Shown here in pieces: positions 404 through 44,209 of a DNA stretch of 44,209 bases. Under the pieces are notes generated by a model. That model searched no databases. It saw nothing but the letters and a program-made list of their open reading frames with translations, and had not been told where the DNA came from. Source of the stretch: a virus. The translations under genes and the position numbers were made by a program. The stretch covers positions 1 to 44,209 of the IMG/VR virus record IMGVR_UViG_2582581264_000001. One strand, 5' to 3'. Every line of letters starts with the position of its first letter. Positions within the stretch are counted from its first letter, which is position 1.

Positions 404-721
404 TTAAGACCTTACCCAAGAATCTCGTGCTTGAGCGGTCCGCCATACTTGGAGACCCTGCGCTTCATGTGCATTCCATAAAGCCTCAAGCCTTTCGGTT
501 TTAAGGTTATTCAAAACCTTAAACTCTTGCTCGGTAATCTCAACCGCCGGGGCTACCTGCCATCCGGCGGCGGCGCGGCCGGTGTTGGAAAATCCGATTA
601 AACACGGGTTGCGATCCTCCCCCAACATCACAGTGCCAAACTTATAATCGCGGCTTGCGGACTTCCTAAAAAAAGTTACATCCCCGATTGTTGCCTTGAA
701 GAATTTTGCAGCCATTTTCAT
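404..721 (-). CDS. hypothetical protein (105 aa)
   Basis: ORF track entry. GGAG lies 2 nt upstream of ATG 721 (an in-frame ATG at 715 gives an 8-nt spacing), and the ORF is preceded by promoter-like elements at 746-789. Confidence 0.6.
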   Translation of the reverse strand: MKMAAKFFKATIGDVTFFRKSASRDYKFGTVMLGEDRNPCLIGFSNTGRAAAGWQVAPAVEITEQEFKVLNNLKTERLEALWNAHEAQGLQVWRTAQARDSWVRS

Positions 722-729
722 AACTCCGG

Positions 730-747
730 TTGTTTCGTACTAAACAA
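730..747 (+). promoter_or_regulatory. 18-bp conserved motif, copy A (TTGTTTCGTACTAAACAA)
   Basis: One of four near-identical copies (730, 1847, 18302, 32903), all written in the same + orientation. This copy overlaps the -10/+1 region of the minus-strand promoter for 404..721. Internal inverted repeat TTGTTT-N6-AAACAA. Confidence 0.6.
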
Positions 748-789
748 TTACCTCTATTCGAGGTAGCTAGTCAAGCTATCAATGCTATC
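746..789 (-). promoter_or_regulatory. sigma70-like promoter with upstream GATAG repeats, driving 404..721
   Basis: Minus strand reads GATAGcattGATAGC-TTGACT-N17-GTAATT. It has the same architecture as the promoters at 1428, 1861, 4424 and 32854. Confidence 0.5.
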
Positions 790-796
790 ATTTCTA

Positions 797-823
797 TAAA
801 AAATAGCGGGGATTTCTCCCCGC
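797..823 (-). terminator. intrinsic terminator downstream of 830..1381
   Basis: 7-bp stem GCGGGGA/TCCCCGC (806-812 / 817-823) with a 4-nt loop. On the minus strand it is followed by a TATTTTTTA run and lies 7 nt after the stop codon. Confidence 0.7.
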
Positions 824-829
824 TTTGTC

Positions 830-1381
830 TTAGCGTGCAGCGCAATGCGTTCTATGGAGAGCTTGAAAAAACTCGCTCTCAAGATCGCGGGAGGGGTTGG
901 CTAAAAAGCGCTGTTTATATGTCGCCGCCACCTCGTCAATCTCAAGATCAGCACCAGGGAAGCCCTTAGCGGTCAGCCGGTCATGGACGCGGCGCATAAG
1001 CGCACCCGAAAACTCGCGGCGGCAAAAGCTGTAGCCGTAGAAGAAACGCACCAACTTTGCCCCCTCGGGTTGGGGGTTGTGTGCCGGCTGGCAGCAACCC
1101 TTCTGGCCTAGCGTTCCGCGATCTTCAGCGACAATGGCGGAGCCGTCCGGTAACAGCCAGTTGTCAACGCGGTATTCCATGTCGATCGAGCAGTCAAAGC
1201 GGGTGGAGCTATAGGATTGCACCACCTCATCCACCAGCGAGGCAAGCGGGCCGTCAACCCATGAGACATTAAGCGAGCCGCCAGCAATCCGCACGGAAAA
1301 CTTGATGCCTGGAAATTTCTTCTTGAGGGCGGCGCGGACCAGCTTAGCGGTTGCGGCGGGTTTGATATAATCAGCGTCCAT
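830..1381 (-). CDS. LPD29-like (large polyvalent-protein-associated domain 29) stand-alone protein
   Basis: Start chosen at ATG 1381 (MDADYIKPAATAK...), with a GGAG RBS inside the conserved leader. The string AKLVRAALKKKFPGIKFSVR...SLNVSWVDGP matches my memory of the LPD29 family seen on plasmids, ICEs and phages. Not verified by search. Confidence 0.5.
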   Translation of the reverse strand: MDADYIKPAATAKLVRAALKKKFPGIKFSVRIAGGSLNVSWVDGPLASLVDEVVQSYSSTRFDCSIDMEYRVDNWLLPDGSAIVAEDRGTLGQKGCCQPAHNPQPEGAKLVRFFYGYSFCRREFSGALMRRVHDRLTAKGFPGADLEIDEVAATYKQRFLANPSRDLESEFFQALHRTHCAAR

Positions 1382-1389
1382 ATTCTTAG

Positions 1390-1420
1390 CTCCATGCCCC
1401 TGAGACCCCGAGGCGCGGGT
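1390..1420 (-). repeat. 31-nt conserved 5' leader element, copy 1
   Basis: CTCCATGCCCCTGAGACCCCGAGGCGCGGGT is 30/31 identical to 3588..3618. On the minus strand it ends in GGAG 8 nt before the ATG of the downstream gene. Confidence 0.8.
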
Positions 1421-1427
1421 AAATCTC

Positions 1428-1472
1428 TGATACATCGTTTTGAAGTATCTAGTCAAGCTATCTATGATAGCT
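1428..1472 (-). promoter_or_regulatory. promoter plus perfect 17-bp palindromic operator for 830..1381
   Basis: AGCTATC-TAT-GATAGCT (1456-1472) abuts TTGACT (minus strand, 1456-1451), followed by N17 and GTATCA (1433-1428). Confidence 0.55.
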
Positions 1473-1487
1473 CAACTAGAAAAAAAA

Positions 1488-1811
1488 TTATTCGCAAATT
1501 AGGTGGGCGCGCCCATGGTTCTTGCCGCCGCATGAGCATTCGCACTTGAAGCCCTTTGCCTCAGTGCAACGGGCATCGCAGGCATGGGCGGTGCGGAAAC
1601 CTGCAACGCGGGAAGCTTGCGCGCGCATCCCGGAGCAGGACGGGCAGCGCGTATCATATCCGGCTTCAACCTTGCGGCCCGTTTCGGTCTCGCGTTCGTA
1701 GCGCGGAACGCTGCGCCCATATCCCACGGGCACCATGCGGGAATCATATTCCCGCGCCCATACGCGCCCGCAAGCCTTGTTTCCGCAACGGAAAATAAAG
1801 CGGGTTTTCAT
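1488..1811 (-). CDS. Cys-rich putative zinc-binding protein (107 aa)
   Basis: ORF track entry with a GGAG RBS. Cysteine clusters are CGNKAC, CPSC and CDARCTEAKGFKCECSCGGKNHG. No family name assigned. Confidence 0.6.
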   Translation of the reverse strand: MKTRFIFRCGNKACGRVWAREYDSRMVPVGYGRSVPRYERETETGRKVEAGYDTRCPSCSGMRAQASRVAGFRTAHACDARCTEAKGFKCECSCGGKNHGRAHLICE

Positions 1812-1846
1812 GCTGCAAACTCCATAGCTGGATTTTTCGGGGGGTG

Positions 1847-1864
1847 TTGTTTCGTACCATACAA
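1847..1864 (+). promoter_or_regulatory. 18-bp conserved motif, copy B (TTGTTTCGTACCATACAA)
   Basis: Identical to copy D (32903) and overlaps the -10 region of the minus-strand promoter for 1488..1811. Confidence 0.6.
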
Positions 1865-1911
1865 ATACCCGCTATCGTGGCTATGTCAACTATCCATAAT
1901 ATCCATGATAG
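1861..1911 (-). promoter_or_regulatory. promoter with two overlapping operator palindromes for 1488..1811
   Basis: Minus strand reads CTATC-ATG-GATAT and ATATT-ATG-GATAG, followed directly by TTGACA (1889-1884) and a weak -10 (ATTTGT/GTATTT). Confidence 0.5.
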
Positions 1912-2231
1912 CTAATAATTCCGATAAATCCCAACTTCACAACCGCGAGATTGAGAGCATTCGCAAGCCCGCGGTTAAAACCAGGCGCCCCAAACCAGGC
2001 CCTCCGCTCCCCTGGCATAAGTCCACCGCCGCACCGCGACCCCGCCCCCCACGCCAGAGAGAAAAGCCCTCACACGCTATAGGAACAGAAACACCCTCCC
2101 CGTAGGTTGCCCGCTGATGTTGACGCAAACGGCAAATATGGAGGCGCCGCCATGATGTTTTGTTAACTGTAACCCGCCCCGGTTACAGTTTTGGTTACTA
2201 AAAAACGCTGTGTTTTCAGCGTTGTAACCAA

Positions 2232-2320
2232 TGTAACCAATGTAACCACGGGGAACCCCACACACGAACAACCCACCGTTTCATGCGGTGGGTGTTGTGT
2301 ATGTGGTTACATTGGTTACA
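2232..2320. repeat. long imperfect palindrome (cruciform-capable) inside the iteron region
   Basis: TGTAACCAATGTAACCA...ACCCACCG-tttcatg-CGGTGGGT...TGGTTACATTGGTTACA. The outer 17 nt and inner 8 nt are perfectly complementary. Confidence 0.8.
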
Positions 2321-2330
2321 CGCGCGGCTT

Positions 2331-2363
2331 TTATATATATATGTTATTGAAATATATATATAA
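2331..2363. other. AT-only palindrome (candidate DNA-unwinding element)
   Basis: TTATATATATAT-gttattgaa-ATATATATATAA is a perfect 12-bp inverted repeat. The 39-bp stretch 2329-2367 is AT-rich (only two G) in an otherwise GC-rich genome and is flanked on both sides by iterons. Confidence 0.7.
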
Positions 2364-2526
2364 ATAAGGCTCTAAGGCTGTAACCAAGGCTGTAACCAAG
2401 GGCGTAACCAGCCCGTAACCAAGCCGGAAACCGATTTTAAAGACCCTACAGGGCATCTTGTTGGTTTCGGCTACCATCCCACCGGAAGCTTGTTTCAAGG
2501 CATCACAGCCGCAGGAGATTGACCGC

Positions 2527-3096
2527 ATGACCATAAGAGAGACCGTTCATACCGTTGCCCGGCAGACCATGAAACCGCGCCCTGAACCTGCCAAGCGGGT
2601 GCGCGCCACTTCAGAGCGGAAATTGCACAATGTTGACGTTGTGATTGATCGCTGCGGAGCGGAGCGAATTGATAGCGGCGTTATGGCGCTGCACCGCAAC
2701 GGCTCTCTAACCGATTCAGACCTGCATGCAGCAGAACGGTTTTACGCTGATTATGCGCTTGCGGTGCATGGTGCGCGCGACAGCGAGAAAACCGGAGGGG
2801 GTGGAAGCCCTGACAGCATGGGGGTGGCCGTCATCCACGCATCCGCCGCACTGACAGACGCAATCGAGGCGGTGGGAAGTTACGGGAAGGCTATCCTTGT
2901 TGCGTTTGTCGTGGACGGCCTATCCCTAGCTAAGATCGCGCAATCAAGGGGCGAAAATAGGCAAGTCCTTACCGGAATTGTGATTTCCACAATTAAGCGG
3001 CTGAGCGATCATTACTATGCGGTTGATAACCGTCCGCGTTTTCCAATGAAGCGAGCGCGGAGCGTTCAGAAGCAGTTAGCATCCCTAAAAGCGTAA
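2527..3096 (+). CDS. putative DNA-binding protein with a C-terminal sigma70-region-4/LuxR-like HTH (candidate iteron-binding or regulatory protein)
   Basis: ATG 2527 (MTIRETV...), with GGAG 10 nt upstream. The C-terminal LSLAKIAQSRGENRQVLTGIVISTIKRL looks like an HTH. The gene lies immediately downstream of the iteron array. Confidence 0.5.
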   Translation: MTIRETVHTVARQTMKPRPEPAKRVRATSERKLHNVDVVIDRCGAERIDSGVMALHRNGSLTDSDLHAAERFYADYALAVHGARDSEKTGGGGSPDSMGVAVIHASAALTDAIEAVGSYGKAILVAFVVDGLSLAKIAQSRGENRQVLTGIVISTIKRLSDHYYAVDNRPRFPMKRARSVQKQLASLKA

Positions 3097-3313
3097 CGAT
3101 TGCTTGCATTTCACCGGAAACCGCATGAACACCCGTCGCCATGCGAGAGATGGAGAGCAGCCGGGCTTTGAAGGTCCGGCGGTCCCCAAGCGCGCCAAGC
3201 GCGCGAGCAAGCGCCGATTGAGCGCCTTCACCAAATAACTTTTGCAGCTTCACGTAAAACTCTGCCGCGCTATCAGAACGCGCGGTTTTGCTGCGGTTTG
3301 GATGGTTTGCCAT
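2993..3313 (-). CDS. hypothetical protein (106 aa), possible small DNA-binding protein
   Basis: ORF track entry with a strong GGAGAGG RBS. Its 3' end overlaps the 3' end of 2527..3096 by 104 nt (convergent). Confidence 0.55.
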   Translation of the reverse strand: MANHPNRSKTARSDSAAEFYVKLQKLFGEGAQSALARALGALGDRRTFKARLLSISRMATGVHAVSGEMQAIVTLLGMLTASERSALASLENADGYQPHSNDRSAA

Positions 3314-3357
3314 GGTTCACCTCTCCCCGGATTACCCGCCGGGGAACGGGGAAGGGG

Positions 3358-3579
3358 TTAATGGTGCAGATACAGCGCGAGCAACGCGCCGATTGCAGCG
3401 GGAATGATGCCGCCGCCAATAATGGCGGTGAAAAGCGGGAGCCACGGGTGCGCGCGTAACTGCTCGTTAATCATGCGGGTTTCCGCGTTGATCTTGCTTG
3501 TTTCCGCGTTCAGGCGGGTGGTTTCCGCAAAAAGCTTGTCAATCTCAAGCGTGCGTAGATCGTCAGTTGAAGCGCTCAT
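3358..3579 (-). CDS. tail-anchored membrane protein with a heptad-repeat N-terminus (73 aa)
   Basis: TTRLNAE/TSKINAE/TRMINEQ heptads followed by the C-terminal hydrophobic segment WLPLFTAIIGGGIIPAAIGALLALYL. Preceded by the conserved 31-nt leader with GGAG. Confidence 0.6.
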   Translation of the reverse strand: MSASTDDLRTLEIDKLFAETTRLNAETSKINAETRMINEQLRAHPWLPLFTAIIGGGIIPAAIGALLALYLHH

Positions 3580-4394: not shown

Positions 4395-4423
4395 GGTAGG
4401 CTCCGTAATTCGTGTTGAACCGT

Positions 4424-4475
4424 CATTACGTCGTTTTGAGGTGGTGTGTCAACTATCATGGATAGCAATGATATC
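4424..4475 (-). promoter_or_regulatory. promoter plus operator palindrome for the leftward operon 4394->2993
   Basis: Minus strand reads GATATC-attg-CTATC-CAT-GATAG fused to TTGACA (4452-4447), then N17 and GTAATG (4429-4424). Confidence 0.55.
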
Positions 4476-4508
4476 AAAAAAATAACGCGGCATTGCGGAG
4501 GGTGGCAC

Positions 4509-4568
4509 GGCCAGGGATTGCCCGGCCTTCCTGGCATTGCACGGGGCCAGCAAAAGGCCAGGGATTGC
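4509..4568 (+). repeat. two 13-bp direct repeats GGCCAGGGATTGC (4509-4521, 4556-4568)
   Basis: Exact duplicates 47 bp apart in non-coding DNA. CCTGGC (4530-4535) can pair with GCCAGG in either copy. Confidence 0.85.
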
Positions 4569-4601
4569 AGGGGTTGCGGCGCGAGAGTGGAGCGAAGCGA
4601 A

Positions 4602-4635
4602 ACGGAGCGGCGCAACAGCTTCCGTGCGTTTTTTT
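4602..4635 (+). terminator. candidate intrinsic terminator (+ strand) with no upstream protein gene
   Basis: Stem ACGGAGC / GCT(T)CCGT with one bulge and a 9-nt loop, followed by GCG and a T7 run (4629-4635). Confidence 0.45.
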
Positions 4636-4683
4636 GATCGCACAATACATATATGCGCGCGCGAAAATTTGGCCGCGCAAGCC

Positions 4684-4700
4684 GGGGAGGGGAGGGAGGG
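4684..4700 (+). other. G-quadruplex-forming motif GGGGAGGGGAGGGAGGG
   Basis: Four G-tracts of at least 3 G separated by single-nucleotide loops. Confidence 0.7.
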
Positions 4701-4701
4701 C

Positions 4702-4740
4702 CGAAAAATGCGAAAATTCGCAAAAAATCGCAGAAATCCG
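4702..4740. repeat. four tandem ~10-bp A-tract units (candidate intrinsic bend)
   Basis: CGAAAAATG / CGAAAATTCG / CAAAAAATCG / CAGAAATCCG. The A-tracts start at 4704, 4713, 4722 and 4734, roughly in helical phase. Confidence 0.7.
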
Positions 4741-4751
4741 CCATTTCTAAG

Positions 4752-4809
4752 CTATCAAAGATAATTCGGCTATCAGTTGTAGCCACGCTATCACGAATAT
4801 CATGGATAG
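4752..4809. promoter_or_regulatory. cluster of CTATC/GATAG operator-type sites
   Basis: CTATC-AAA-GATAA (4752-4764), CTATC (4770), CTATC (4788) and ATATC-ATG-GATAG (4797-4809). Confidence 0.5.
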
Positions 4810-4992
4810 GCGGCGCGCCAGCGCTGCGGAGCGTTGCCGCGCCGCTGCTTCTGAACGTGTGCGAGTGCGCAAAAACGCGCGCCAATAAAAAACACAGAAC
4901 GTTTATTATGGAAAGTCGGGCCAAAAATCGCCCTATATCGCTTGAAAAAACAAAGCTCAATTTTGCGCGTCAATCGCGCTGCAATGTCATGT

Positions 4993-5114
4993 GTTGCGCT
5001 GTATTTTGAGTATTTGCCGCGCGTTGCGTTGCGTTGCGTTGCGCTTGAATACGCTGAAAAACAAGGAAAATCCTCACGTTTTGATCGCATACGTTGCAAT
5101 AGCGTTGCGTTGCG
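4993..5114. repeat. GTTGCG/GCGTT short-repeat arrays, including (GCGTT)x4 at 5021-5040
   Basis: GTTGCG-type hexamers at 4993, 5023, 5028, 5033, 5038, 5093 (GTTGCA), 5104 and 5109, all on the + strand. Confidence 0.8.
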
Positions 5115-5416
5115 GTTTACGAACAAACAAGCCGAAAATAACACGCAAACCCGCAGAAAACCTAGCTTTTTTGACGATGTACTATAATAACCATCTGTTT
5201 AGTAGAGAATTGACCCCCCCCATACCCTTTTTTTCGAGTATGAGCGGCGTTGGCCTTCCGAAAACCACTGAGGGGAAAATGGGGATTGGGGCCGATTAGG
5301 AATGCTCCCGCATCCGTGAAACACCCCTCTTGCCGGGCAATCTAGCCCGTAGGCGCCACGGCGCGGCGGAGGCAGGCCACGGTAGCCGCAGCCACCCGGT
5401 AGCCTTCTAAGGCTTT

Positions 5417-5454
5417 GCAGGGCGTTCCTGGGGCATATGCTCTAGGCGCCCTGC
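5417..5454. repeat. 38-bp imperfect palindrome centred on GCATATGC
   Basis: GCAGGGCG-tt-CCTGGGGCAT|ATGCTCTAGG-CGCCCTGC, followed by an A8 run. The run is on the wrong side for terminator function on either strand. Confidence 0.75.
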
Positions 5455-5593
5455 CGCAGCAAAAAAAATCTAAGTATTCCAAGTTGGAGTATAGGAACGC
5501 GAAACAGGAAGCCGTATCACTTTTTCATCATCGCGGTGGTGCGCCAGACAGAAAGACGGCGCACCGCCCCACCATCTGAACCGTGAGGCCATT

Positions 5594-6013
5594 ATGAGAA
5601 CCCGCGCAATTCTATTCGTTCGCGGCGATGTGATAGCGCGCGGCTCGGCCCGGCGGGTTGTGTGGGGCGTTACCTCTGACCGCCTAGTTGCGTTCCCGTT
5701 AATTCCTTCGGACGGCGCGACATATCGCAACGCTGTGTCTTTTTCAGAGATTTCGGACGTTGCGGCTATGGGGTGCGGCAAAGGTGATCTAGCGATACGT
5801 CCGGCGGTGGTGGCTTCGGCTTCCACCGCCGGGTGGAAAAAGGTTGGTGAGATAACAGCGAGCCGCCTTCAAGAATTAGAGAGCGCCGTTAAGCGGGCCG
5901 TGGTGGAGGAATCCACGGTTGCCCGTTGGAGCAAGGCGCCCAAAAAGGTTAAGAATCATGCAAGGCGTGAAAATCTCCGCACGGCAGAAGGCCGCGTTTA
6001 TCGCAGCGCTTAG
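5594..6013 (+). CDS. hypothetical protein (139 aa), weak resemblance to the PemK/MazF-type fold
   Basis: ORF track entry, with GTGAGG 6 nt before the ATG. RGDVI...RRVVWGVTSDRLVAFPLIPS...AIRPAVVASAS...KKVGEITASRLQELESAVKRAV loosely follows the PemK/MazF pattern. Overlaps terS by 56 nt. Confidence 0.35.
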   Translation: MRTRAILFVRGDVIARGSARRVVWGVTSDRLVAFPLIPSDGATYRNAVSFSEISDVAAMGCGKGDLAIRPAVVASASTAGWKKVGEITASRLQELESAVKRAVVEESTVARWSKAPKKVKNHARRENLRTAEGRVYRSA

Positions 6014-6407
6014 CCGGGAGCCGAATGTTGCTGCCGCGTGCAAAGCGGCCAAGGTGGGCCGGTCTGCAATCTACGCCCTGAAGCGAGAGAATGAAGAATT
6101 TTCGGAGCTTTGGGATGAGGTGATGCAGACCGCCGTTGACGATCTTGAGGGCGAAGCCTTCAACCTTGCGCGTCACGGCACGCTTGAGCCGGTGGTAAGC
6201 GCGGGCAAGCTGATTTTTGACCCTGACACTCGCAAGCCGATGTTTGTGAAAAAGGTTATTCCCGCGCTGATTTTGCGCCTTCTGACTGCGCACCGGCCCG
6301 AGAAGTACGCGCCGCAGCCGTCCGGGCAAGCGGCGCTACCGTTTGAGCTTACCCCTGACCCTGAACCCACGCCGGATGAAGCCGGGCCGTCAAAGCCCCT
6401 GCTCTAA
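5958..6407 (+). CDS. terS: terminase small subunit
   Basis: ATG 5958. The N-terminal HTH-like ISARQKAAFIAALSREPNVAAACKAAKVGRSAIYALKRENEEF resembles phage TerS proteins. Positioned upstream of terL. Confidence 0.7.
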   Translation: MQGVKISARQKAAFIAALSREPNVAAACKAAKVGRSAIYALKRENEEFSELWDEVMQTAVDDLEGEAFNLARHGTLEPVVSAGKLIFDPDTRKPMFVKKVIPALILRLLTAHRPEKYAPQPSGQAALPFELTPDPEPTPDEAGPSKPLL

Positions 6408-6432
6408 CTCCGGCGCAACCGGAGTTATCGAA

Positions 6433-6813
6433 ATGGCGAAATTTAAAGCAGGCGACAAGGTTTATTGGGCTGGCACCCGAAAGGGCGGGACTCCGGGTGG
6501 GATGTGGACGGAGGGTAAAGCTTATGCGGTCAATTCCGACGACAGCATTACCGTTTTTGACGATGACGGCAGGCGGTGGTGGGCCGGGGTTAGAGGTGCC
6601 GTCAACGAGTTTAGCCTAACACCACAGGAACCAGTCCCCGCGCGGGCGAAGGCGCCAGCGTTAGTCACCCCGGCGGGATTAGCCGCAATCCAGGCTTGGC
6701 TTGATGAAAGTGGGGCGGAACACCTCTCCCCTGGCGACCGCTGCGCCGCCGATCTCATGGACGCGCTCGGAGTCACATGGCGCAAGCGCAGCTATGAAGC
6801 CGCGTTGAAGTAA
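6433..6813 (+). CDS. hypothetical protein (126 aa) between terS and terL
   Basis: ATG 6433 with a GGAG RBS (MAKFKAGDKVYWAG...). Confidence 0.6.
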   Translation: MAKFKAGDKVYWAGTRKGGTPGGMWTEGKAYAVNSDDSITVFDDDGRRWWAGVRGAVNEFSLTPQEPVPARAKAPALVTPAGLAAIQAWLDESGAEHLSPGDRCAADLMDALGVTWRKRSYEAALK

Positions 6814-6855: not shown

Positions 6856-8172
6856 ATGGCAAGAATCCGACCACTACCACCACCTGAACAGATCAGCTTA
6901 ACCCATAAACAATCAAATATATATCAATGGGGTTTTCAGCCGGAGGCTCGTTTCAGGACGGCGGTATGTGGGCGGCGCTTCGGCAAGACTTACCTTGCCG
7001 CGCGCGAAATGAAGCGGGCCGCGCAACTCGCGGCAAAATGGTCCGTTCATCCTGACAATGAAATTTGGTACGGCGCGCCCACCTTCAAGCAGGCAAAGCG
7101 CGTTTTCTGGCCTCGTCTCAAGCGTGCAATTCCGGCGCATTGGGTAGAACACAAAAACGAAAACGAGTGCCATCTAACGACTGTGGCCGGGCATACGCTG
7201 CGAATTGTAGGGCTTGACCTATATGACAATTTGCGCGGGTCCGGCCTTTTCTTTTTCATTGGCGACGAATGGGCGGACGTTCCACCGCAGGCGTGGATTG
7301 AAGTTGTTTCGCCCATGCTTTCGACGGCGCACGGGCACTCTCTGAAAATTGGCACGCCCAAGGGCTTTGACCATTTTTATGACGAGTACGTTTTAGGCCA
7401 GGAAGGCGGAGAGGTAGATCATAAGTCCTGGCATTACACCACCCTTCAAGGTGGCAACGTGCCGCAAGCAGAGCTTGAACGCGCCAAGCGCATTTTGGAT
7501 GCGCGGACGTATGAGCAGGAATATGAAGCGGGTTTCGTAACCTATAGTGGGCGCGTCATTTACGCTTTTGACCGCAAGCTTCATGTGCAAGATTGCCCAT
7601 ATAAGCCGGAGCTTCCGGTTTATATTGGTATGGACTTCAACCTGAATCCCATGTCTGCAACCGTGTGGCAGGAATATGGTGGTGCGATCAGGCAGATTGA
7701 CGAAATTATCCTGCCCACCTCCAACACAGACGACATGAGCGACGTTATAGCGCATCGGTATGGGCGGCCATCCTTTACGCCGGGCGAGATTGAGGTGGGT
7801 CATATTACGGTTTACCCGGACCCTGCCGGAGCGCAAAGCCGCACCAGCGCGCAAGGCCGTACAGACATTTCTATTCTGAGGGGGCGCGGTTTTAGCGTCA
7901 TGGCAATGTCTAAAGCGCCCCTTATCCGTGATCGCATCACAGAGACAAACGCCCGCTTCCGCAACGCGGCGGGCGATATTCGCGCCTATGTTGACCCGTG
8001 CTGCCTTCAAAGCATCAAGGCTTATGAAAAGCAAACATACGTTGAAGGCACGAATGACCCCGACAAAAAGAGCGGGTTTGACCATATCGTTGATGCAACG
8101 GGTTACTTCATCTATGGCCGCTTTGCTTACAAACCCGCCCGCTTTAACCAGGGCTTCAATATAGGGCGGTAG
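6856..8172 (+). CDS. terL: terminase large subunit
   Basis: Walker A CGRRFGKT, Walker B FFIGDEWADV, and C-terminal nuclease-like acidic motifs (YPDPAGAQ, FDHIVDATGY). Confidence 0.9.
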   Translation: MARIRPLPPPEQISLTHKQSNIYQWGFQPEARFRTAVCGRRFGKTYLAAREMKRAAQLAAKWSVHPDNEIWYGAPTFKQAKRVFWPRLKRAIPAHWVEHKNENECHLTTVAGHTLRIVGLDLYDNLRGSGLFFFIGDEWADVPPQAWIEVVSPMLSTAHGHSLKIGTPKGFDHFYDEYVLGQEGGEVDHKSWHYTTLQGGNVPQAELERAKRILDARTYEQEYEAGFVTYSGRVIYAFDRKLHVQDCPYKPELPVYIGMDFNLNPMSATVWQEYGGAIRQIDEIILPTSNTDDMSDVIAHRYGRPSFTPGEIEVGHITVYPDPAGAQSRTSAQGRTDISILRGRGFSVMAMSKAPLIRDRITETNARFRNAAGDIRAYVDPCCLQSIKAYEKQTYVEGTNDPDKKSGFDHIVDATGYFIYGRFAYKPARFNQGFNIGR

Positions 8173-31717: not shown

Positions 31718-32010
31718 TGCTTGCCGCCTTCCTGGCAGCTTTGCAGGTAATCTTGCAAGACCTGCCCGAGTTCGCCGCAATCTGGCCAACCCTGGAAAAG
31801 ACCATCTCAACGGGGGCTGAGCCGACCCCGGCCGACCTTGCCAAAATTTGGGCCGCCGCCGCCGCTGTGCATGAGCGCGTTCAGTCTGGCGGCGCTTCCG
31901 CCGACCCCGCCGCCATTGCTTCAGCAGCCGTCACAGACGCGGCGAGCGCGGCTTCCGGCACTCTAGCGGCCCCGCAGGAAGCCCAAACGCCCGCGACTCC
32001 CGTAGGGTAG
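31717..32010 (+). CDS. hypothetical protein (97 aa)
   Basis: TGATG overlap with the previous gene. Ala-rich. Confidence 0.45.
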   Translation: MLAAFLAALQVILQDLPEFAAIWPTLEKTISTGAEPTPADLAKIWAAAAAVHERVQSGGASADPAAIASAAVTDAASAASGTLAAPQEAQTPATPVG

Positions 32011-32043
32011 TCAAGTCTAAAATATTACTATTAGGAATAAAAA

Positions 32044-32078
32044 AGGCCGTCCCCACCCTGGACGGCCTTTCTCTTTTT
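32044..32078. terminator. bidirectional intrinsic terminator
   Basis: 9-bp stem AGGCCGTCC/GGACGGCCT with a 7-nt loop, flanked by AATAAAAA upstream and TTCTCTTTTT downstream. Confidence 0.8.
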
Positions 32079-32132
32079 GAGGTATGCGCGAATGACCGCC
32101 GTTTGGCGGCGATTCGGAGAGTGACATTGAGC

Positions 32133-32163
32133 TAGAAAAATCGAAGGCCGCCCGAAGGCGGCC
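32133..32163 (-). terminator. minus-strand intrinsic terminator with no adjacent minus-strand gene
   Basis: Stem GGCCGCC/GGCGGCC (32146-32163) with loop CGAA. On the minus strand it is followed by TTCGATTTTTCT. Confidence 0.6.
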
Positions 32164-32298
32164 CATGAAAGAGATTTCATCCTAACTTGCCGGGAAGGAT
32201 GACCTCTCTTTGCACATTCCGGGACCATACGCAACACCTTTCGGTGCGCGGATTTGTGCGCCTTGGGCTTCGGGCGCCTCCGATAATGGGGGCAGAAG

Positions 32299-32835
32299 AT
32301 GAAGCGCGAAAAGATTTTCGGCTTGCCGACCGGCAGGCCACTAGACCGGAACGCAAAGGCCCGGATTATGGCCTATGCAGCGGCATGGTCCGCACGCCAA
32401 CGCCAGCCAGGACAACACACCGGCCCATTGACGCGGGCTTATATGGACGTTTTGCGCGCCCTCCTTTGGGGCTTCCACAACGCTAAAACCGGCGCCTGCT
32501 TTCCCGGCTACGACGCTATTGCAAAGCATGCCCGGTGCCACCGCGACACAGTGCGCAAGGCAATTCGCATGCTTGAATTGTCGGGGCTGTTAACCTGGGT
32601 GCATCGCCTCCGCCGCGTTCCTGGCGCCGTGCTGCGGACAAGCAACGGTTACAGCTTCCGTGACCCCTCCCCCGCGCCGCAACCCCGCGAGAATCCTACT
32701 AAGGCGGAAAATTCGCCCGGAACCCAAAACCAAGATTCTTCTAATATAAAGATCGTGGTTTTAGACCCGGCAAACCGGCTTGACGCAGCCCTTATTAGGC
32801 TCGGGAAAAGCGCCGGAGCGTTGTCACCGGCATAA
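32299..32835 (+). CDS. winged-helix DNA-binding protein (plasmid/ICE-type; replication-initiator-like or regulator)
   Basis: GACFPGYDAIAKHARCHRDTVRKAIRMLELSGLLTW is a typical wHTH segment seen in proteins encoded on mobile elements. Confidence 0.5.
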   Translation: MKREKIFGLPTGRPLDRNAKARIMAYAAAWSARQRQPGQHTGPLTRAYMDVLRALLWGFHNAKTGACFPGYDAIAKHARCHRDTVRKAIRMLELSGLLTWVHRLRRVPGAVLRTSNGYSFRDPSPAPQPRENPTKAENSPGTQNQDSSNIKIVVLDPANRLDAALIRLGKSAGALSPA

Positions 32836-33678: not shown

Positions 33679-34017
33679 TCACAAAACCCGGCTTTTAGCC
33701 GTAGGTTGCAAGTCAAACTCCGGCACGTCATAACCGGCCTTCTTGGCTAGAGTGGCTATAAACTGCCTCATGCCAACGTCCCTGGACGCATCCAAAAGTA
33801 GCGAGCAAAATTCACGGGAACAGCGAAAGTTGACTTGCTCAAGCTTTTCACGCTGCGGCTTGGGAGGGCGTCCCCTGCCGCGTTGCTGCTCAACCGGCTC
33901 CGCTGGCTCGGCAACTGCTTGGGCTGGTTTGGGGGTTGTCGCAGGTAAATCCGCCGTTGCTTTAGAAATCTGGCTCACAAGCTCCGCCCCGGAGATTTTC
34001 TTTGCCTTCAACGCCAT
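33679..34017 (-). CDS. small partition partner protein (candidate centromere-binding, ribbon-helix-helix-like)
   Basis: 112 aa, translationally coupled (TAATG) to parA. Has a basic middle region (RGRGRPPKPQREK) followed by QVNFRCSREFCSLLLDASRDVG. Confidence 0.5.
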   Translation of the reverse strand: MALKAKKISGAELVSQISKATADLPATTPKPAQAVAEPAEPVEQQRGRGRPPKPQREKLEQVNFRCSREFCSLLLDASRDVGMRQFIATLAKKAGYDVPEFDLQPTAKSRVL

Positions 34018-34676
34018 TATGCAGCACTCCCAACACGGGCCGCAGGAATGGCCCCGATTTCGGTTAATTCGCCAATAAGCCGGTCAGCCTCAACCCCCAA
34101 CCGCCCACTAACAGGCAGGTTCCCGGTAAAGCTGGCCTTACGGAACGCGGATAGATGAGGCAGCGCGTAGCGCATGACGGGCAACCCTTCAGCCTTCAGA
34201 GCGTCAAGAGTCGCAGATTCAACAAGGCCGCCGGTGCGCCATTGCGTGCCGATTACCCTATAAGGAAGGGCGCGCCGCGCCGCTTTCCCAAGAGACTCAA
34301 TTTTGCGCGCTGTGCGGATAGCTTCGCGGGTGCTGCTTCTGTCTGGCATGCACGGCACAAGGATAAAGTCAGCGACGCTAATTGCGCTGGCGGCGGTTAG
34401 GTTGGCAAAGCCCGCCGTGTCAATCACAACTATATCACCGGCCTCTGCTTCCGCCTGGGCCGCGTCAATCACCTCAACCTCCCGGCACTCGGCAAGACAG
34501 CGAAACGGCGCGCCCTCGTAAACATTGGCATGCCAGTCGGAAAGCGTGGCATTTGCGTCAGCGTCTATCACGGTGACGGCATAACCTAGTTGCGCCAAGT
34601 TGGCCGACAGGCATTGCGCTAGAGTAGATTTCCCGGCGCCACCTTTTGAGGTGGCAATCGTTAGGATGGTGCCCAT
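34017..34676 (-). CDS. parA: ParA-family partition ATPase
   Basis: Deviant Walker A TSKGGAGKST, plus VIDADAN and VVIDTAG motifs. 219 aa. Confidence 0.9.
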   Translation of the reverse strand: MGTILTIATSKGGAGKSTLAQCLSANLAQLGYAVTVIDADANATLSDWHANVYEGAPFRCLAECREVEVIDAAQAEAEAGDIVVIDTAGFANLTAASAISVADFILVPCMPDRSSTREAIRTARKIESLGKAARRALPYRVIGTQWRTGGLVESATLDALKAEGLPVMRYALPHLSAFRKASFTGNLPVSGRLGVEADRLIGELTEIGAIPAARVGSAA

Positions 34677-41671: not shown

Positions 41672-42541
41672 ATGACCGCCCTGCCCCAAGAAATCGAAGC
41701 CCTGGCGTTGTTGGGCTGGCGGCTCTATCCGGCCAGCACGCGGAGCCGTGCAGCCCTTGTCAGCCAGTTTAAGGATGGAGCAAAGCCCCACGAATTAGCT
41801 ACGCATGACCTAGACCAGCTTGAAACGTGGGCGCGCCGATTTCCGGGGTGTAACTGGCGTGTTGTCATGGAAGGCTCCGGCATTATCGGGCTAGACGTGG
41901 ACGCGCCGGGAGATGACCATAACGGCGATGGCATAACCGCGTTGCGCGATCTTGTGGCCAAAAACACCCCCCTCCCCCCTCGCCCAACCACGCGAAGTGG
42001 CAGCGGTGGGTTTGCGCTGTTTTTCCGCGATAACGGCGCGCCGATCTGCCGCCGGAGCGGCTGGCCGGTGGCTGGGTTAGATCCCCGCGCCGGGCCGCTT
42101 ACGGTAACTGTGCCTCCCTCCACGCATCTAAGAACGCGCAACGCCTACAGGTGGGCGCCGGGGTTGGCGCCTTGGGAGTGCCCCTTACCCGAGGCGCCCG
42201 CGTGGTTGCTTAAAGCCTTAGCCCCTCCGCCTGAACCGCCTATACCCAAGCGCATGCAGCAGCGCCCGGCAACAGAACCGCGCGCCCGGCGGCGCTTAGA
42301 GCGCGCGGTTGATAATGTGCAATATGCAAAGCCCGGCACGCGCAATGCGGAGCTAAACCGGCAATCCTATGCGGTGGGCCGCTATGTGGGCGCGGGGCTG
42401 CTAGATCAGAATTATGTTATTTCCGTGCTATACACGATTGCGCGTAAATCAGGGTTAGCAGATAAAGAGGCGCGCGACACTATCCGCAGCGGGATGGCGT
42501 CGGGCGTTCGTAATCCAGTAACGACAACAGGAAACGAATGA
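41672..42541 (+). CDS. bifunctional primase-polymerase (PrimPol, AEP-family) N-terminal-domain protein
   Basis: LLGWRLYP..., the IIGLDVDAPGD acidic motif, SGSGGFALFF, and VPPSTH...YRW. Confidence 0.75.
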   Translation: MTALPQEIEALALLGWRLYPASTRSRAALVSQFKDGAKPHELATHDLDQLETWARRFPGCNWRVVMEGSGIIGLDVDAPGDDHNGDGITALRDLVAKNTPLPPRPTTRSGSGGFALFFRDNGAPICRRSGWPVAGLDPRAGPLTVTVPPSTHLRTRNAYRWAPGLAPWECPLPEAPAWLLKALAPPPEPPIPKRMQQRPATEPRARRRLERAVDNVQYAKPGTRNAELNRQSYAVGRYVGAGLLDQNYVISVLYTIARKSGLADKEARDTIRSGMASGVRNPVTTTGNE

Positions 42542-42723
42542 ACATTGAAGATGGCAGGCTTGACCGCGTTTGGGCGGAAAACTGCTTTGCAGACCGGGGC
42601 CGCGTCCTGACGGGTTGGGCATCTCACTATTGCCCGGACTTTGACGGCCTCACGATTGATGAAACTTGCCCGCAATGGCCTTGCCTATGCGCGGATGAAT
42701 TGAAAGAGCGCAATCATGCCTGA
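42538..42723 (+). CDS. small Cys-containing protein (61 aa)
   Basis: ATGA overlap upstream and an 8-nt overlap with the helicase start. Five cysteines, including CPQWPCLC. Confidence 0.45.
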   Translation: MNIEDGRLDRVWAENCFADRGRVLTGWASHYCPDFDGLTIDETCPQWPCLCADELKERNHA

Positions 42724-44209
42724 TTATGGCGGCGATATTGACACAGCCGGAGATATGGAAGGCGGATATAGCGCACCACGCCCTAACCTGCCCTTTCAGG
42801 CTCTCGGTTATGACCGCAGCACGTTCTTTTTTCTGCCAAACAGAGGGGGGCAGGTGTTGGAGTTTTCGGGCCGCGAGCTTGGTTCAGCCGGGGCGTTGCT
42901 TCAGCTTGCCCCGCTTTTCTGGTGGGAATCCGAATGCTCCGGCAAAACCGGCATGGATACAAAGCAAGCGAATGATATGGTTTTGCGCATGTCTTACGCG
43001 GCGGGGCCGTTTGATGCGGGCCGCGTGCGAGGCCGTGGCGTTTGGCTGGAAGATGACGGGCGCCCCGTTGTGCATGCTGGCGATCATTTGGCCGTTGATG
43101 GTCAAATCATCTCGCCTACTGAATGGGAAGGGCAGGGCATCTATGAGCGCGCGCCTAAGCTTGGCGTTTCCTTCAGCGCAGAACCGGCAGAAACCGAGGA
43201 AGCAAAACGCTTCCTTGACCTATGCGCCGCCCTCCCTTGGGAGGATGCAAACGACGATGGCGTGGACACTAGCAGCATGGGCCGCATGCTGGCCGGGTGG
43301 ATAACCGTTTCAGCGTTCTGTGGGGCGATGCCGTGGCGGCCACACGTCTGGATTACTTCGGAGGCTGGCCAGGGTAAAAGCTGGCTGCTTGATAATATCC
43401 TGAAGCCCATGCTTGGCGGGGCTGAGTTGCGGGTGCAATCCAAGACGACAGAAGCCGGGTTACGTGCCGCCCTTGGCCGGGACGCGCGCCCGGTGGTGTT
43501 TGATGAAGCAGAAACGCAGAACCAGCGCGATGCCGACCGCATGCAGCAGGTTCTTGACCTTGCCCGGCAGGCATCAAGCGAGGATGGCGCGGATATTGTG
43601 AAATCAACACAGACCGGACAGGCACGCCGATTCAGAATCAGGTCTATGTTTGCCTTTGCAAGCGTCAACGTGGCGCTCTCGCAAGCGGCTGATGAAAGCC
43701 GGACCATTGTTCTTTCGCTGCGCCCGGCACGGGATAAAGACGCGCGGGCCGCGCATTTCGAGAAGCTGAAAAGCTTGCAGGCCGAAATCGTTACCCCTGG
43801 TTTTGCCGCTCGGCTTCGCGCCCGCACGCTCTCGCTGTTGCCGACTATTCGCGCAAACGCGGAGGTTTTCGCGTCCGCGATTGCGAGGGCAGGGGGGTCA
43901 CGCCGCACAGGCGACACAGTTGGTGTACCTCTCGCCGGTGCATGGTCTCTCCGTTCCCGGCGGACTGCCACCAGGGAGGAAGCGGACGCATTTGTTGCGG
44001 GCACTCCATGGGTACGGGCAGCGGTGGAACGCATCGAGAGCGAGCCGGAATGGAGGCAATGCCTTAACCGGCTGCTCGGGCAGCGCATCCGCCTTCCTGG
44101 CAGGGTTGAAGAAGTCCCCGTTGGCGAGTTGCTGGATATTGTGGGAACCCCCTACAGCACGCCAGAAATGGCCGGAGGGGATGACATGCCGGGTGATGGA
44201 GGGACAGCC
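42716..44209 (+). CDS. SF3 (D5/P4-alpha-like) replicative helicase, 5' part; continues at 1..386
   Basis: Missing from the ORF track because it has no in-window stop. Hand translation MPDYGGDIDTAGD... shows Walker A SEAGQGKSW and Walker B RPVVFDEAET. The combined length with 1..386 is about 594 aa. Confidence 0.8.
   Translation, partial: MPDYGGDIDTAGDMEGGYSAPRPNLPFQALGYDRSTFFFLPNRGGQVLEFSGRELGSAGALLQLAPLFWWESECSGKTGMDTKQANDMVLRMSYAAGPFDAGRVRGRGVWLEDDGRPVVHAGDHLAVDGQIISPTEWEGQGIYERAPKLGVSFSAEPAETEEAKRFLDLCAALPWEDANDDGVDTSSMGRMLAGWITVSAFCGAMPWRPHVWITSEAGQGKSWLLDNILKPMLGGAELRVQSKTTEAGLRAALGRDARPVVFDEAETQNQRDADRMQQVLDLARQASSEDGADIVKSTQTGQARRFRIRSMFAFASVNVALSQAADESRTIVLSLRPARDKDARAAHFEKLKSLQAEIVTPGFAARLRARTLSLLPTIRANAEVFASAIARAGGSRRTGDTVGVPLAGAWSLRSRRTATREEADAFVAGTPWVRAAVERIESEPEWRQCLNRLLGQRIRLPGRVEEVPVGELLDIVGTPYSTPEMAGGDDMPGDGGTA
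44115..44209. repeat. Terminal direct repeat, right copy (identical to 1..95)
   Basis: Letter-for-letter identity with 1..95. Confidence 0.95.

Follow-up and report, generated by a model that had tools for sequence, protein, structure and literature searches.

The IMG/VR virus record IMGVR_UViG_2582581264_000001 was analysed over its whole length of 44,209 nucleotides (hereafter the window), and this study focuses on a dense field of short GTAACC repeats at positions 2165-2433, which we regard as the probable replication origin of the element. The two ends of the contig overlap by 95 nt (bases 1-95 repeat 44115-44209) and the molecule is therefore circular, with a length of about 44.1 kb. The repeat field is located within a gap of 715 bp (1812-2526) that contains no credible open reading frame (ORF), which agrees with the description of the field as non-coding in an earlier note on this DNA. 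The gap is bordered on one side by a minus-strand operon (1811->404) and on the other by a plus-strand gene (2527-3096) whose product carries a helix-turn-helix (HTH). The region 1500-3500 showed zero DNA matches to 50,697 GenBank phages.

The window contains 29 exact GTAACC/GGTTAC sites, 12 of which fall within 252 bp (2169-2420), where about 0.07 would be expected. The 17 sites outside the field are close to background, given an expectation of 12.6 for the whole window, and all seven perfect TGTAACCA octamers are found inside it. When the window was shuffled 60 times with its dinucleotide composition preserved, the maximum number of copies of any hexamer and its reverse complement per 350 bp was 5-6, compared with the 12 observed.

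From left to right, the field begins with a group of three iterons (2165-2198) in the orientation > < <, comprising the inverted pair AACTGTAACC-N6-GGTTACAGTT (2165-2190) and a GGTTAC at 2193. A small hairpin flanked by A/T runs, ACGCTG-N6-CAGCGT (2204-2223), resembles a terminator on the minus strand. It is followed on the plus strand by three tandem direct iterons, TGTAACCA(A/C), at 2223-2249, which start at 2223, 2232 and 2241 with a spacing of 9 bp and the third of which reads TGTAACCAC. A palindrome of 89 bp spans 2232-2320. Its 18-nt outer arms are iteron pairs and are 100% complementary, its CA/TG-rich inner arms (2258-2278 and 2286-2306) are 76% complementary, and the hairpin at its centre (2271-2293) is terminator-like on the plus strand. 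As single-stranded DNA, this palindrome folds far better than shuffled sequences (z = -6.7). Rfam at gathering thresholds and ARAGORN returned nothing for the whole window, and the palindromes of the field are thus not explained by any known RNA. Two reverse-orientation iterons (TGGTTACA twice; 2304-2320, minus strand) lie directly to the left of an AT-rich tract. To the right of this tract, four direct iterons of the form (T/C)GTAACCA (2379-2432, plus strand) point away from it, with GTAACC at 2380, 2392, 2404 and 2415 (spacing 12, 12 and 11 bp) and a degenerate fifth copy, GAAACC, at 2427 (GGAAACC, 2426-2432). The pattern around the tract is therefore << [AT] >>>>.

The tract itself (2329-2367) is the predicted DNA-unwinding element. 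Of its 39 bp, 95% are A+T, with two G and no C, and nowhere else in the genome is the GC content as low (0.075 per 40 bp, against 0.20 for the next value). In terms of duplex stability, too, it is the extreme: at -34.4 kcal/mol, its 40-mer lies 5.6 sd from the mean of -58.9 kcal/mol (sd 4.4) and is the least stable in the genome. Two 11-nt alternating TA runs (2332-2342 and 2352-2362) form perfectly complementary arms of 13 nt (2330-2342/2352-2364) separated by a 9-nt spacer. Most of this architecture had been anticipated in the earlier note: at least 12 GTAACC/GGTTAC copies in about 270 bp, three tandem units at 9-bp spacing, a palindrome of about 89 bp with iterons as its outer arms, a stretch of about 39 bp with only two G, and four to five tandem GTAACC units 11-12 bp apart were all found again. 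The inverted pair it described exists with arms of 10 bp instead of 8, and the perfect 12-bp TA palindrome it placed in the tract does not exist, the two TA runs being found instead.

The predicted initiator of the replicon is a helicase of 594 amino acids, the gene of which runs across the contig end (42716->386, plus strand). Its N-terminal 498 codons (42716-44209) match the C-terminal part of phrog_35358, whereas its 3' end (1-386, stop codon at 384-386) encodes a C-terminal domain of about 100 residues, the predicted iteron-binding module. The protein as a whole matches the C-terminal half of phrog_35358, annotated as 'DNA primase', at 1e-102. The gene directly upstream (41672-42541, plus strand) encodes a Prim-Pol (PF09250), the predicted primase of the replicon. 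More than 576 homologs of the helicase were found, many of which are fused to a primase domain as proteins of 860-930 amino acids, and one homolog carries a DUF927 label in UniRef. The window helicase gave zero Pfam hits, with the Pfam DUF927 model included, and zero PDB sequence hits. An AlphaFold2 model based on 26 homologs had a mean predicted local distance difference test score of 84 and a predicted template modelling score of 0.73. Its best structural match in the PDB, over the full length, was Cch of the staphylococcal cassette chromosome mec (SCCmec; 5dgk), followed by monkeypox virus E5, the primase-helicase of Staphylococcus aureus pathogenicity island (SaPI) 5 (7ola) and vaccinia D5. 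Given these matches, the model identifies the protein as a self-loading helicase of the superfamily 3 (SF3)/minichromosome maintenance (MCM)-like class, with its Prim-Pol partner encoded just upstream. The C-terminal 100 or so residues are confidently modelled as a small alpha/beta domain. With regard to DnaA boxes (TTATCCACA-like sites), no enrichment was observed, and the sole site in the field has two mismatches and overlaps an iteron. This absence is consistent with a helicase that loads itself.

We then compared the loci of helicase homologs, 80 viral and 34 genomic (114 in total, 26-51% identity, from viral and bacterial contigs), in which the strongest hexamer field was sought over about 12 kb per locus with no motif presupposed. 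The counts refer to 98 non-redundant loci in which the sequence continues for 400 bp or more past the helicase gene. In 66 of the 98, a field was present in which one hexamer recurs 6-13 times (median 9), in both orientations, together with an AT-rich 40-mer. The distance between the helicase stop codon and the start of this field has a median of 7.5 bp (range -89 to +128), and in 59 of these 66 loci no repeat field is stronger. In five further loci, the field was displaced by 150-1500 bp. The nearest genomic relatives, from Roseomonas, Elioraea, Falsiroseomonas and Azospirillum, all possess an adjoining field. The iterons of the relatives are mostly variants of GTAAC, including CGTAACA, GGTAACA, TGTAACG, TGTAACC, GTGACA, GGGTACA, CGTGAGA and CGGGACA. 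In 31 of 42 non-duplicate relatives with a GTAAC core, the AT minimum is flanked by oppositely directed iterons, two per side, as in the window. Beyond the field, the relatives vary, with an unknown 277-aa protein, a sliding clamp, a ribbon-helix-helix (RHH) protein or terminase genes 1.2-2 kb away. Given this variation, the constant partner of the field is the helicase. These data establish the repeat field with its statistics, the extreme instability of its AT tract, the fold class to which the helicase belongs and this tight, recurrent linkage to the 3' end of the helicase gene.

Two cases among the relatives are instructive. The first is a pair of loci, L122 and L123, whose helicases are 88-96% identical in nine of ten N-terminal 50-column windows (80% in the remaining one) and only 74% identical over the last 100 or so residues. 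The iterons of these two loci differ by one base, GTAACA in L122 (field at 6278-6576) and GTGACA in L123 (2876-3204). The C-terminal domain appears to diverge together with the iteron sequence, which makes the two loci a natural candidate pair for the identification of specificity determinants, and a natural specificity switch with which iteron reading by this domain could be studied. The second is the linear plasmid paNv_CH14 of Arsenophonus nasoniae (8.19 kb), which has five annotated genes, including one for a protelomerase, and in which a homolog of the window helicase is the only replication gene. Its field (3174-3456), with 12 TGTAAT/ATTACA sites around an AT-rich core, begins about 60 bp past the helicase stop codon. 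This plasmid offers indirect support for autonomous replication that depends on such an initiator. Similar Arsenophonus plasmids of 8-12 kb form a family.

Several relatives also exhibit an alternating purine-pyrimidine stretch (CACACGCGCGTGTATATATA) at the centre of the field. As a separate observation, alternating purine-pyrimidine tracts (CACACGCGCGTGTGTATATATA) that go beyond mere A+T richness are present in many field centres (in L122, L129 and L136, and at 2258-2306 and 2320-2342 of the window). Such tracts are prone to Z-DNA formation or to easy melting. They are conserved across the relatives and are not mentioned in the SaPI descriptions compared here.

The origin interpretation is well supported by this comparative evidence. 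We consider it probable that replication of this circular, myovirus-like phage-plasmid of 44.1 kb starts at 2165-2433 and that the iterons there are bound by the C-terminal domain of the helicase of this element. The earlier note had also read the field as an origin, and the comparison with the 66 relatives, with the Arsenophonus plasmid and with the published layout of SaPIs and phage-inducible chromosomal islands (PICIs) supports that reading. It had named both the helicase C-terminal domain and the product of 2527-3096 as candidate binders. The former is the likely one, as a prediction, whereas the latter is disfavoured by its weak match to the GafA family (DUF6456), by the lack of any homolog near a field in the 114 loci and by the absence of a repeat field where its own homologs are encoded elsewhere. 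The binding protein, the melting step and initiation are here modelled on SaPI/PICI and P4 origins. By this analogy, the C-terminal domain of the helicase would bind the 12 exact (T/C)GTAACC(A) iterons and the one degenerate copy. Since the iterons flanking the AT tract at 2329-2367 are oppositely directed, helicase hexamers would assemble to its left and right, open it with no help from DnaA and load themselves, after which synthesis would be primed by the Prim-Pol, the product of a separate gene (41672-42541).

Several observations weigh against this interpretation. The field lies 1.78 kb past the helicase stop codon (386) instead of adjoining it, with three minus-strand genes and a spacer of 355 bp in between. 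No field of the kind defined above was found in 27 of the 98 relatives, among them the Bordetella phage PBb001. A winged helix in the C-terminal domain of the helicase is not established: a profile of the domain found nothing among PDB sequences or in the C-terminus of VapE, and hhalign gave a weak but topologically sensible alignment (E = 0.067) with the HTH_56 C-terminus of SaPI-Rep-like proteins. Given that the element also encodes a ParA system and, next to ParA-type functions, an O-like/HTH_36 protein (32299-32835) as a second candidate replication protein, a second origin used in the plasmid mode may exist. Finally, the GC-skew check proposed in the earlier note proved uninformative, since the skew follows gene orientation and its cumulative minimum, at 2592 in the raw curve, moves to 37855 after detrending.

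The three genes that separate the helicase from the field (404-1811, minus strand) comprise 404-721, 830-1456, which encodes an LPD29 'polyvalent protein' domain, and 1488-1811. They are essentially without counterparts in the 114 related loci, and they therefore look like a cassette inserted between helicase and origin. The displaced position is the only local peculiarity of this otherwise known origin type.

With regard to the element as a whole, its gene content is myovirus-like. The packaging and head genes include those for the small terminase (terS at 5919), the large terminase (terL at 6856), the portal and the major capsid protein, and the tail genes include those for the tail sheath, the tape measure and the baseplate. 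The element further encodes a single-stranded DNA-binding protein, a repressor of the CI type, a Gam-like protein and an annealing protein similar to Erf. A DEAD-box helicase and a VRR-NUC nuclease are present in addition to the Prim-Pol and the large helicase. A ParA (phrog_164, 34017-34676) is encoded next to a small RHH-like ParB partner (33679-34017), and no integrase was found among the ORFs scanned in the window. A protein identical to one of those of the element is recorded from Acidocella aminolytica 101 = DSM 11237. The circular molecule, the ParA/RHH-like pair and the lack of an integrase in the scanned ORFs suggest that the element is probably a myovirus-like phage-plasmid, an episomal prophage of the acidophilic alphaproteobacterium A. 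aminolytica.

Among the alternatives to the origin interpretation, the one that survives best, although we consider it unlikely, is that the field is a multi-site transcriptional control region in which GTAACC operators bind the 2527-3096 protein or another regulator and control that gene, the divergent operon 1811->404, or both. Lying between divergent genes, 95 bp before the one for the HTH protein, the field would be suitably placed for such a role, and the terminator-like hairpins inside it would agree with this, as would the nature of the 2527-3096 protein, which has a C-terminal HTH resembling sigma region 4 and a weak match to DUF6456, the family of GafA. Nevertheless, the search for homologs of this protein within 6 kb of the field was negative at every one of the 114 helicase loci, viral (80) and genomic (34) alike. 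Conversely, three contexts that do encode such homologs (L001, L236 and L237) contain at most five copies of a hexamer, which is background. Furthermore, the field of the relatives abuts the helicase stop codon, which is not the position of a promoter, and the single promoter-like match in 1700-2700 lies outside the field. The likely minus-strand promoters are instead marked by another motif, the dispersed palindrome TATCATGGATAG (core CTATC-N3-GATAG), two copies of which stand beside a minus-strand TTGACA upstream of the minus-strand operons starting at 1811 and 4394.

The gene at 2527-3096 (plus strand) deserves consideration in its own right. Its GafA-like product matches phrog_16492 in addition to DUF6456. 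The latter family is that of GafA, the transcription activator of a gene transfer agent (PMC9638019). The protein is more likely a late-gene activator that probably stands outside the origin, which fits the place of its gene ahead of the packaging genes. A word-indexed search returned one homolog, a full HMMER search returned 223, and no relatives were found in IMG/VR. As a conserved partner of the field, the DUF6456 protein was rejected, since L001, L236 and L237 are without one. The occurrence of such a GafA-like regulator in a bona fide phage-plasmid may be relevant to the ancestry of GafA. In L001, a metagenomic contig of 12.5 kb with a plasmid-like backbone that encodes ParA and a resolvase, the gene for a close homolog of the O-like/HTH_36 protein of the window is immediately followed by that for a DUF6456 homolog (4800-6500). 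In the window, these two genes are 14 kb apart on the circle and may represent a split plasmid-maintenance module.

The possibility that the field is a partition centromere for ParA (34017-34676) and the small RHH-like ParB (33679-34017), located at a distance from the par operon, is very unlikely. Centromeres of types Ib and II are arrays of short direct and inverted repeats, the direct repeats of R1 parC occur at helical-turn spacing, which the 11-12-bp spacing in the window resembles, and the phage-plasmid N15 carries its centromeres away from its par operon. No repeat array was found beside the window gene for ParA and the adjacent small protein, which would leave room for a distant site. 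However, the field tracks the helicase gene, and the relatives that possess it have no ParA homolog in their flanks, the par genes of the window being located at 33.7-34.7 kb. In addition, an extremely AT-rich core with inverted flanking sets of repeats is a feature of origins and not of centromeres. A copy of TATCATGGATAG just upstream of parA (34736) makes this motif a better candidate for the operator or centromere than the GTAACC field.

Twelve copies of TATCATGGATAG with up to two mismatches were found, compared with 1.25 expected, at 776, 1458, 1890, 1899, 3812, 4454, 4752, 4798, 4904, 25252, 32864 and 34736. Nearly all of them are in intergenic DNA of the early regions. On the basis of this distribution, TATCATGGATAG may correspond to a repressor operator or to dispersed centromere sites.

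The weakest alternative, in which the field would serve the small terminase as a packaging site (pac or cos), recalls the hexamer repeats that flank the cleavage region of P1 pac and the order of the modules, with packaging after replication and, in at least 25 relatives, a terminase gene 1.2-2 kb past the field, but it is highly improbable, because the terminase lies at variable distances with differing genes in between, the helicase stop codon is only a few bp away in the relatives, the next gene in some of them encodes a sliding clamp or a PIF1-type or DEAD-box helicase, paNv_CH14 has a field and no terminase, and the 1.2 kb of non-coding DNA directly upstream of the packaging genes (4395-5593) is a better candidate. 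This latter region, in which there is no credible ORF, contains GCGTTGCGTTG repeats, A-rich runs and two perfect copies of TATCATGGATAG, and is a candidate pac/cos or regulatory region.

The same iteron was also found beside other helicase families. The exact 17-mer TGTAACCAATGTAACCA is present in at least 120 contigs of IMG/VR. Among the 120 contigs listed as matches, 107 contain 5-12 GTAACC/GGTTAC sites per 350 bp, and in 99 the field abuts the 3' end of a gene of the primase/helicase type. The design is the same throughout, with clusters of direct and inverted iterons around a TATATA-rich core. In 95 of these 99 listed matches, the TGTAACCAA iteron field follows the stop codon of a SaPI-Rep-like DUF927+HTH_56 helicase, and in the other four that of a VapE-like protein. 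Examples of such fields (within loci L002-L121) are located at 4315-4525 in L014, 1183-1430 in L080, 2831-3128 in L101, 1943-2201 in L028 and 5619-5838 in L056. The DUF927+HTH_56 protein matches the solved SaPI 'pathogenicity island protein' (8tch) and Cch. The phages with fields of the DUF927+HTH_56 or VapE-like kind have a GC content of 36-48% among the matches listed, which also include eight further fields (31-61% GC) with no reference helicase in the stored locus. When all window ORFs were compared by BLASTP with the 120 listed loci, no common protein was found: one locus gave a hit to a DEAD-box helicase, and six gave a weak hit of repressor-like character. The sharing of the iteron is thus not explained by homology detectable by BLAST. 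Likewise, no sequence similarity was detected between the window helicase and the DUF927+HTH_56 or VapE-like helicases.

The occurrence of the same TGTAACC iteron beside three helicase families unrelated by sequence may reflect shared specificity or convergence. GTAAC-core iterons could constitute a recognition code shared by the origin-binding C-terminal domains of sequence-unrelated primase-helicase families (Cch-like, DUF927+HTH_56 and VapE-like), and an origin uncoupled from its helicase and placed before a GafA-like activator could couple late-gene expression to origin firing. We regard this combined proposal as unlikely. If it were true and the sharing were not due to convergence, phages, satellites and plasmids that share a host cell could fire one another's origins. 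A literature search yielded nothing relevant that joins GTAACC or GGTTAC with iterons.

With regard to known systems, the earlier note had compared the field with the classical iteron layout. The comparison holds insofar as iterons flank an unwinding element, but the type is that of SaPIs, PICIs and P4 and not that of plasmids with Rep-bound iterons and DnaA boxes. Classical iteron origins, such as those of pPS10, R6K, RK2 (oriV) and P1 (oriR), likewise place repeated initiator sites beside an AT-rich unwinding element. Their iterons are 17-22 bp long and spaced by about two helical turns (~22 bp), and they rely on Rep_3/RepA-type initiators, usually with DnaA boxes and an adjacent rep gene. 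In contrast, the units in the window are 6-9 bp long at a spacing of 9-12 bp, there is no DnaA box, the predicted initiator is a helicase, and the adjoining gene is GafA-like rather than a rep gene. The gene of the O-like/HTH_36 protein stands at a distance of 14 kb on the circle, and its upstream region (31950-32300) is free of repeats, with terminator-like hairpins only and no iterons.

The archaeal plasmid pRN1 and bacteriophage P4 offer further points of comparison. In P4 alpha and in ORF904 of pRN1, the order of the domains is primase, SF3 helicase and winged helix (PMC2777425; P4 domain, PDB 1ka8). In pRN1, the essential cis region is found 3' of the replication gene (PMC2777425, PMC4234260), and the functions of Prim-Pol, SF3 helicase and winged helix recur in the window, where the C-terminal winged helix is a prediction. 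Unlike the window, pRN1 has no recognisable iterons (PMC2777425). The ori and crr of P4 resemble the field in having short iterons in direct and inverted orientation. In P4, these are recognised by a winged helix C-terminal to an SF3 helicase that also supplies or recruits the primase, and similar recognition is predicted here. However, P4 alpha is a single polypeptide with a DnaG-type primase, whereas Prim-Pol and helicase are encoded by separate genes here, and the window helicase has no sequence similarity to P4 alpha. The P4 iteron is an octamer, and P4 carries a crr element. In the window, every perfect octamer belongs to the one field, and no distant second cluster resembling crr was found. 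The SCCmec Cch (5dgk) is the best structural match of the helicase model over its full length. The DUF927 family differs in that its Pfam model misses the window helicase, and to our knowledge no origin has been defined for Cch.

The closest agreement is with the origins of SaPIs and PICIs. SaPI origins consist of 6-12 penta- or hexanucleotide iterons directly downstream of rep, with an AT-rich centre, half of the iterons on each side and at least two per side in opposite directions, and the C-terminal winged helix of SaPI Rep recognises the iterons, binding and melting being ATP-independent and requiring no loader (PMC9371898). Gram-negative PICIs have the same organisation, and their pri-ori constructs have been tested for plasmid maintenance, among them the pri-rep-ori segment of an E. 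coli PICI. This organisation has been regarded as unique to those islands (PMC6092414). The window field has 12 exact iterons and one degenerate iteron with a short hexamer core (2169-2432). Those at 2304-2320 and 2379-2432 flank the AT tract (2329-2367), with at least two per side in opposite orientation. The predicted initiator, a self-loading SF3/MCM-like helicase paired with a primase, and the absence of DnaA boxes agree as well. Adjacency to the initiator gene is lacking in the window, where the distance is 1.78 kb, and present in 66 of the 98 relatives. Given that every sequence-level trait but this one is shared, the field can be assigned to this origin type. Three further differences are that the element is a 44-kb myovirus-like phage-plasmid of an alphaproteobacterium rather than a satellite of 10-15 kb, that the helicase resembles SaPI Rep in fold only, without a sequence-level match, and that an additional 89-bp palindrome with iteron arms is present to the left of the AT tract.

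These results leave the known mechanism unchanged. They provide a precise predicted origin and a likely initiator for a phage-plasmid from an acidophilic alphaproteobacterium that had not been characterised, and they indicate that the PICI-like origin layout occurs routinely among phages of full size, prophages and small plasmids with Cch/DUF927-like helicases, the origins of which can therefore be predicted from sequence.

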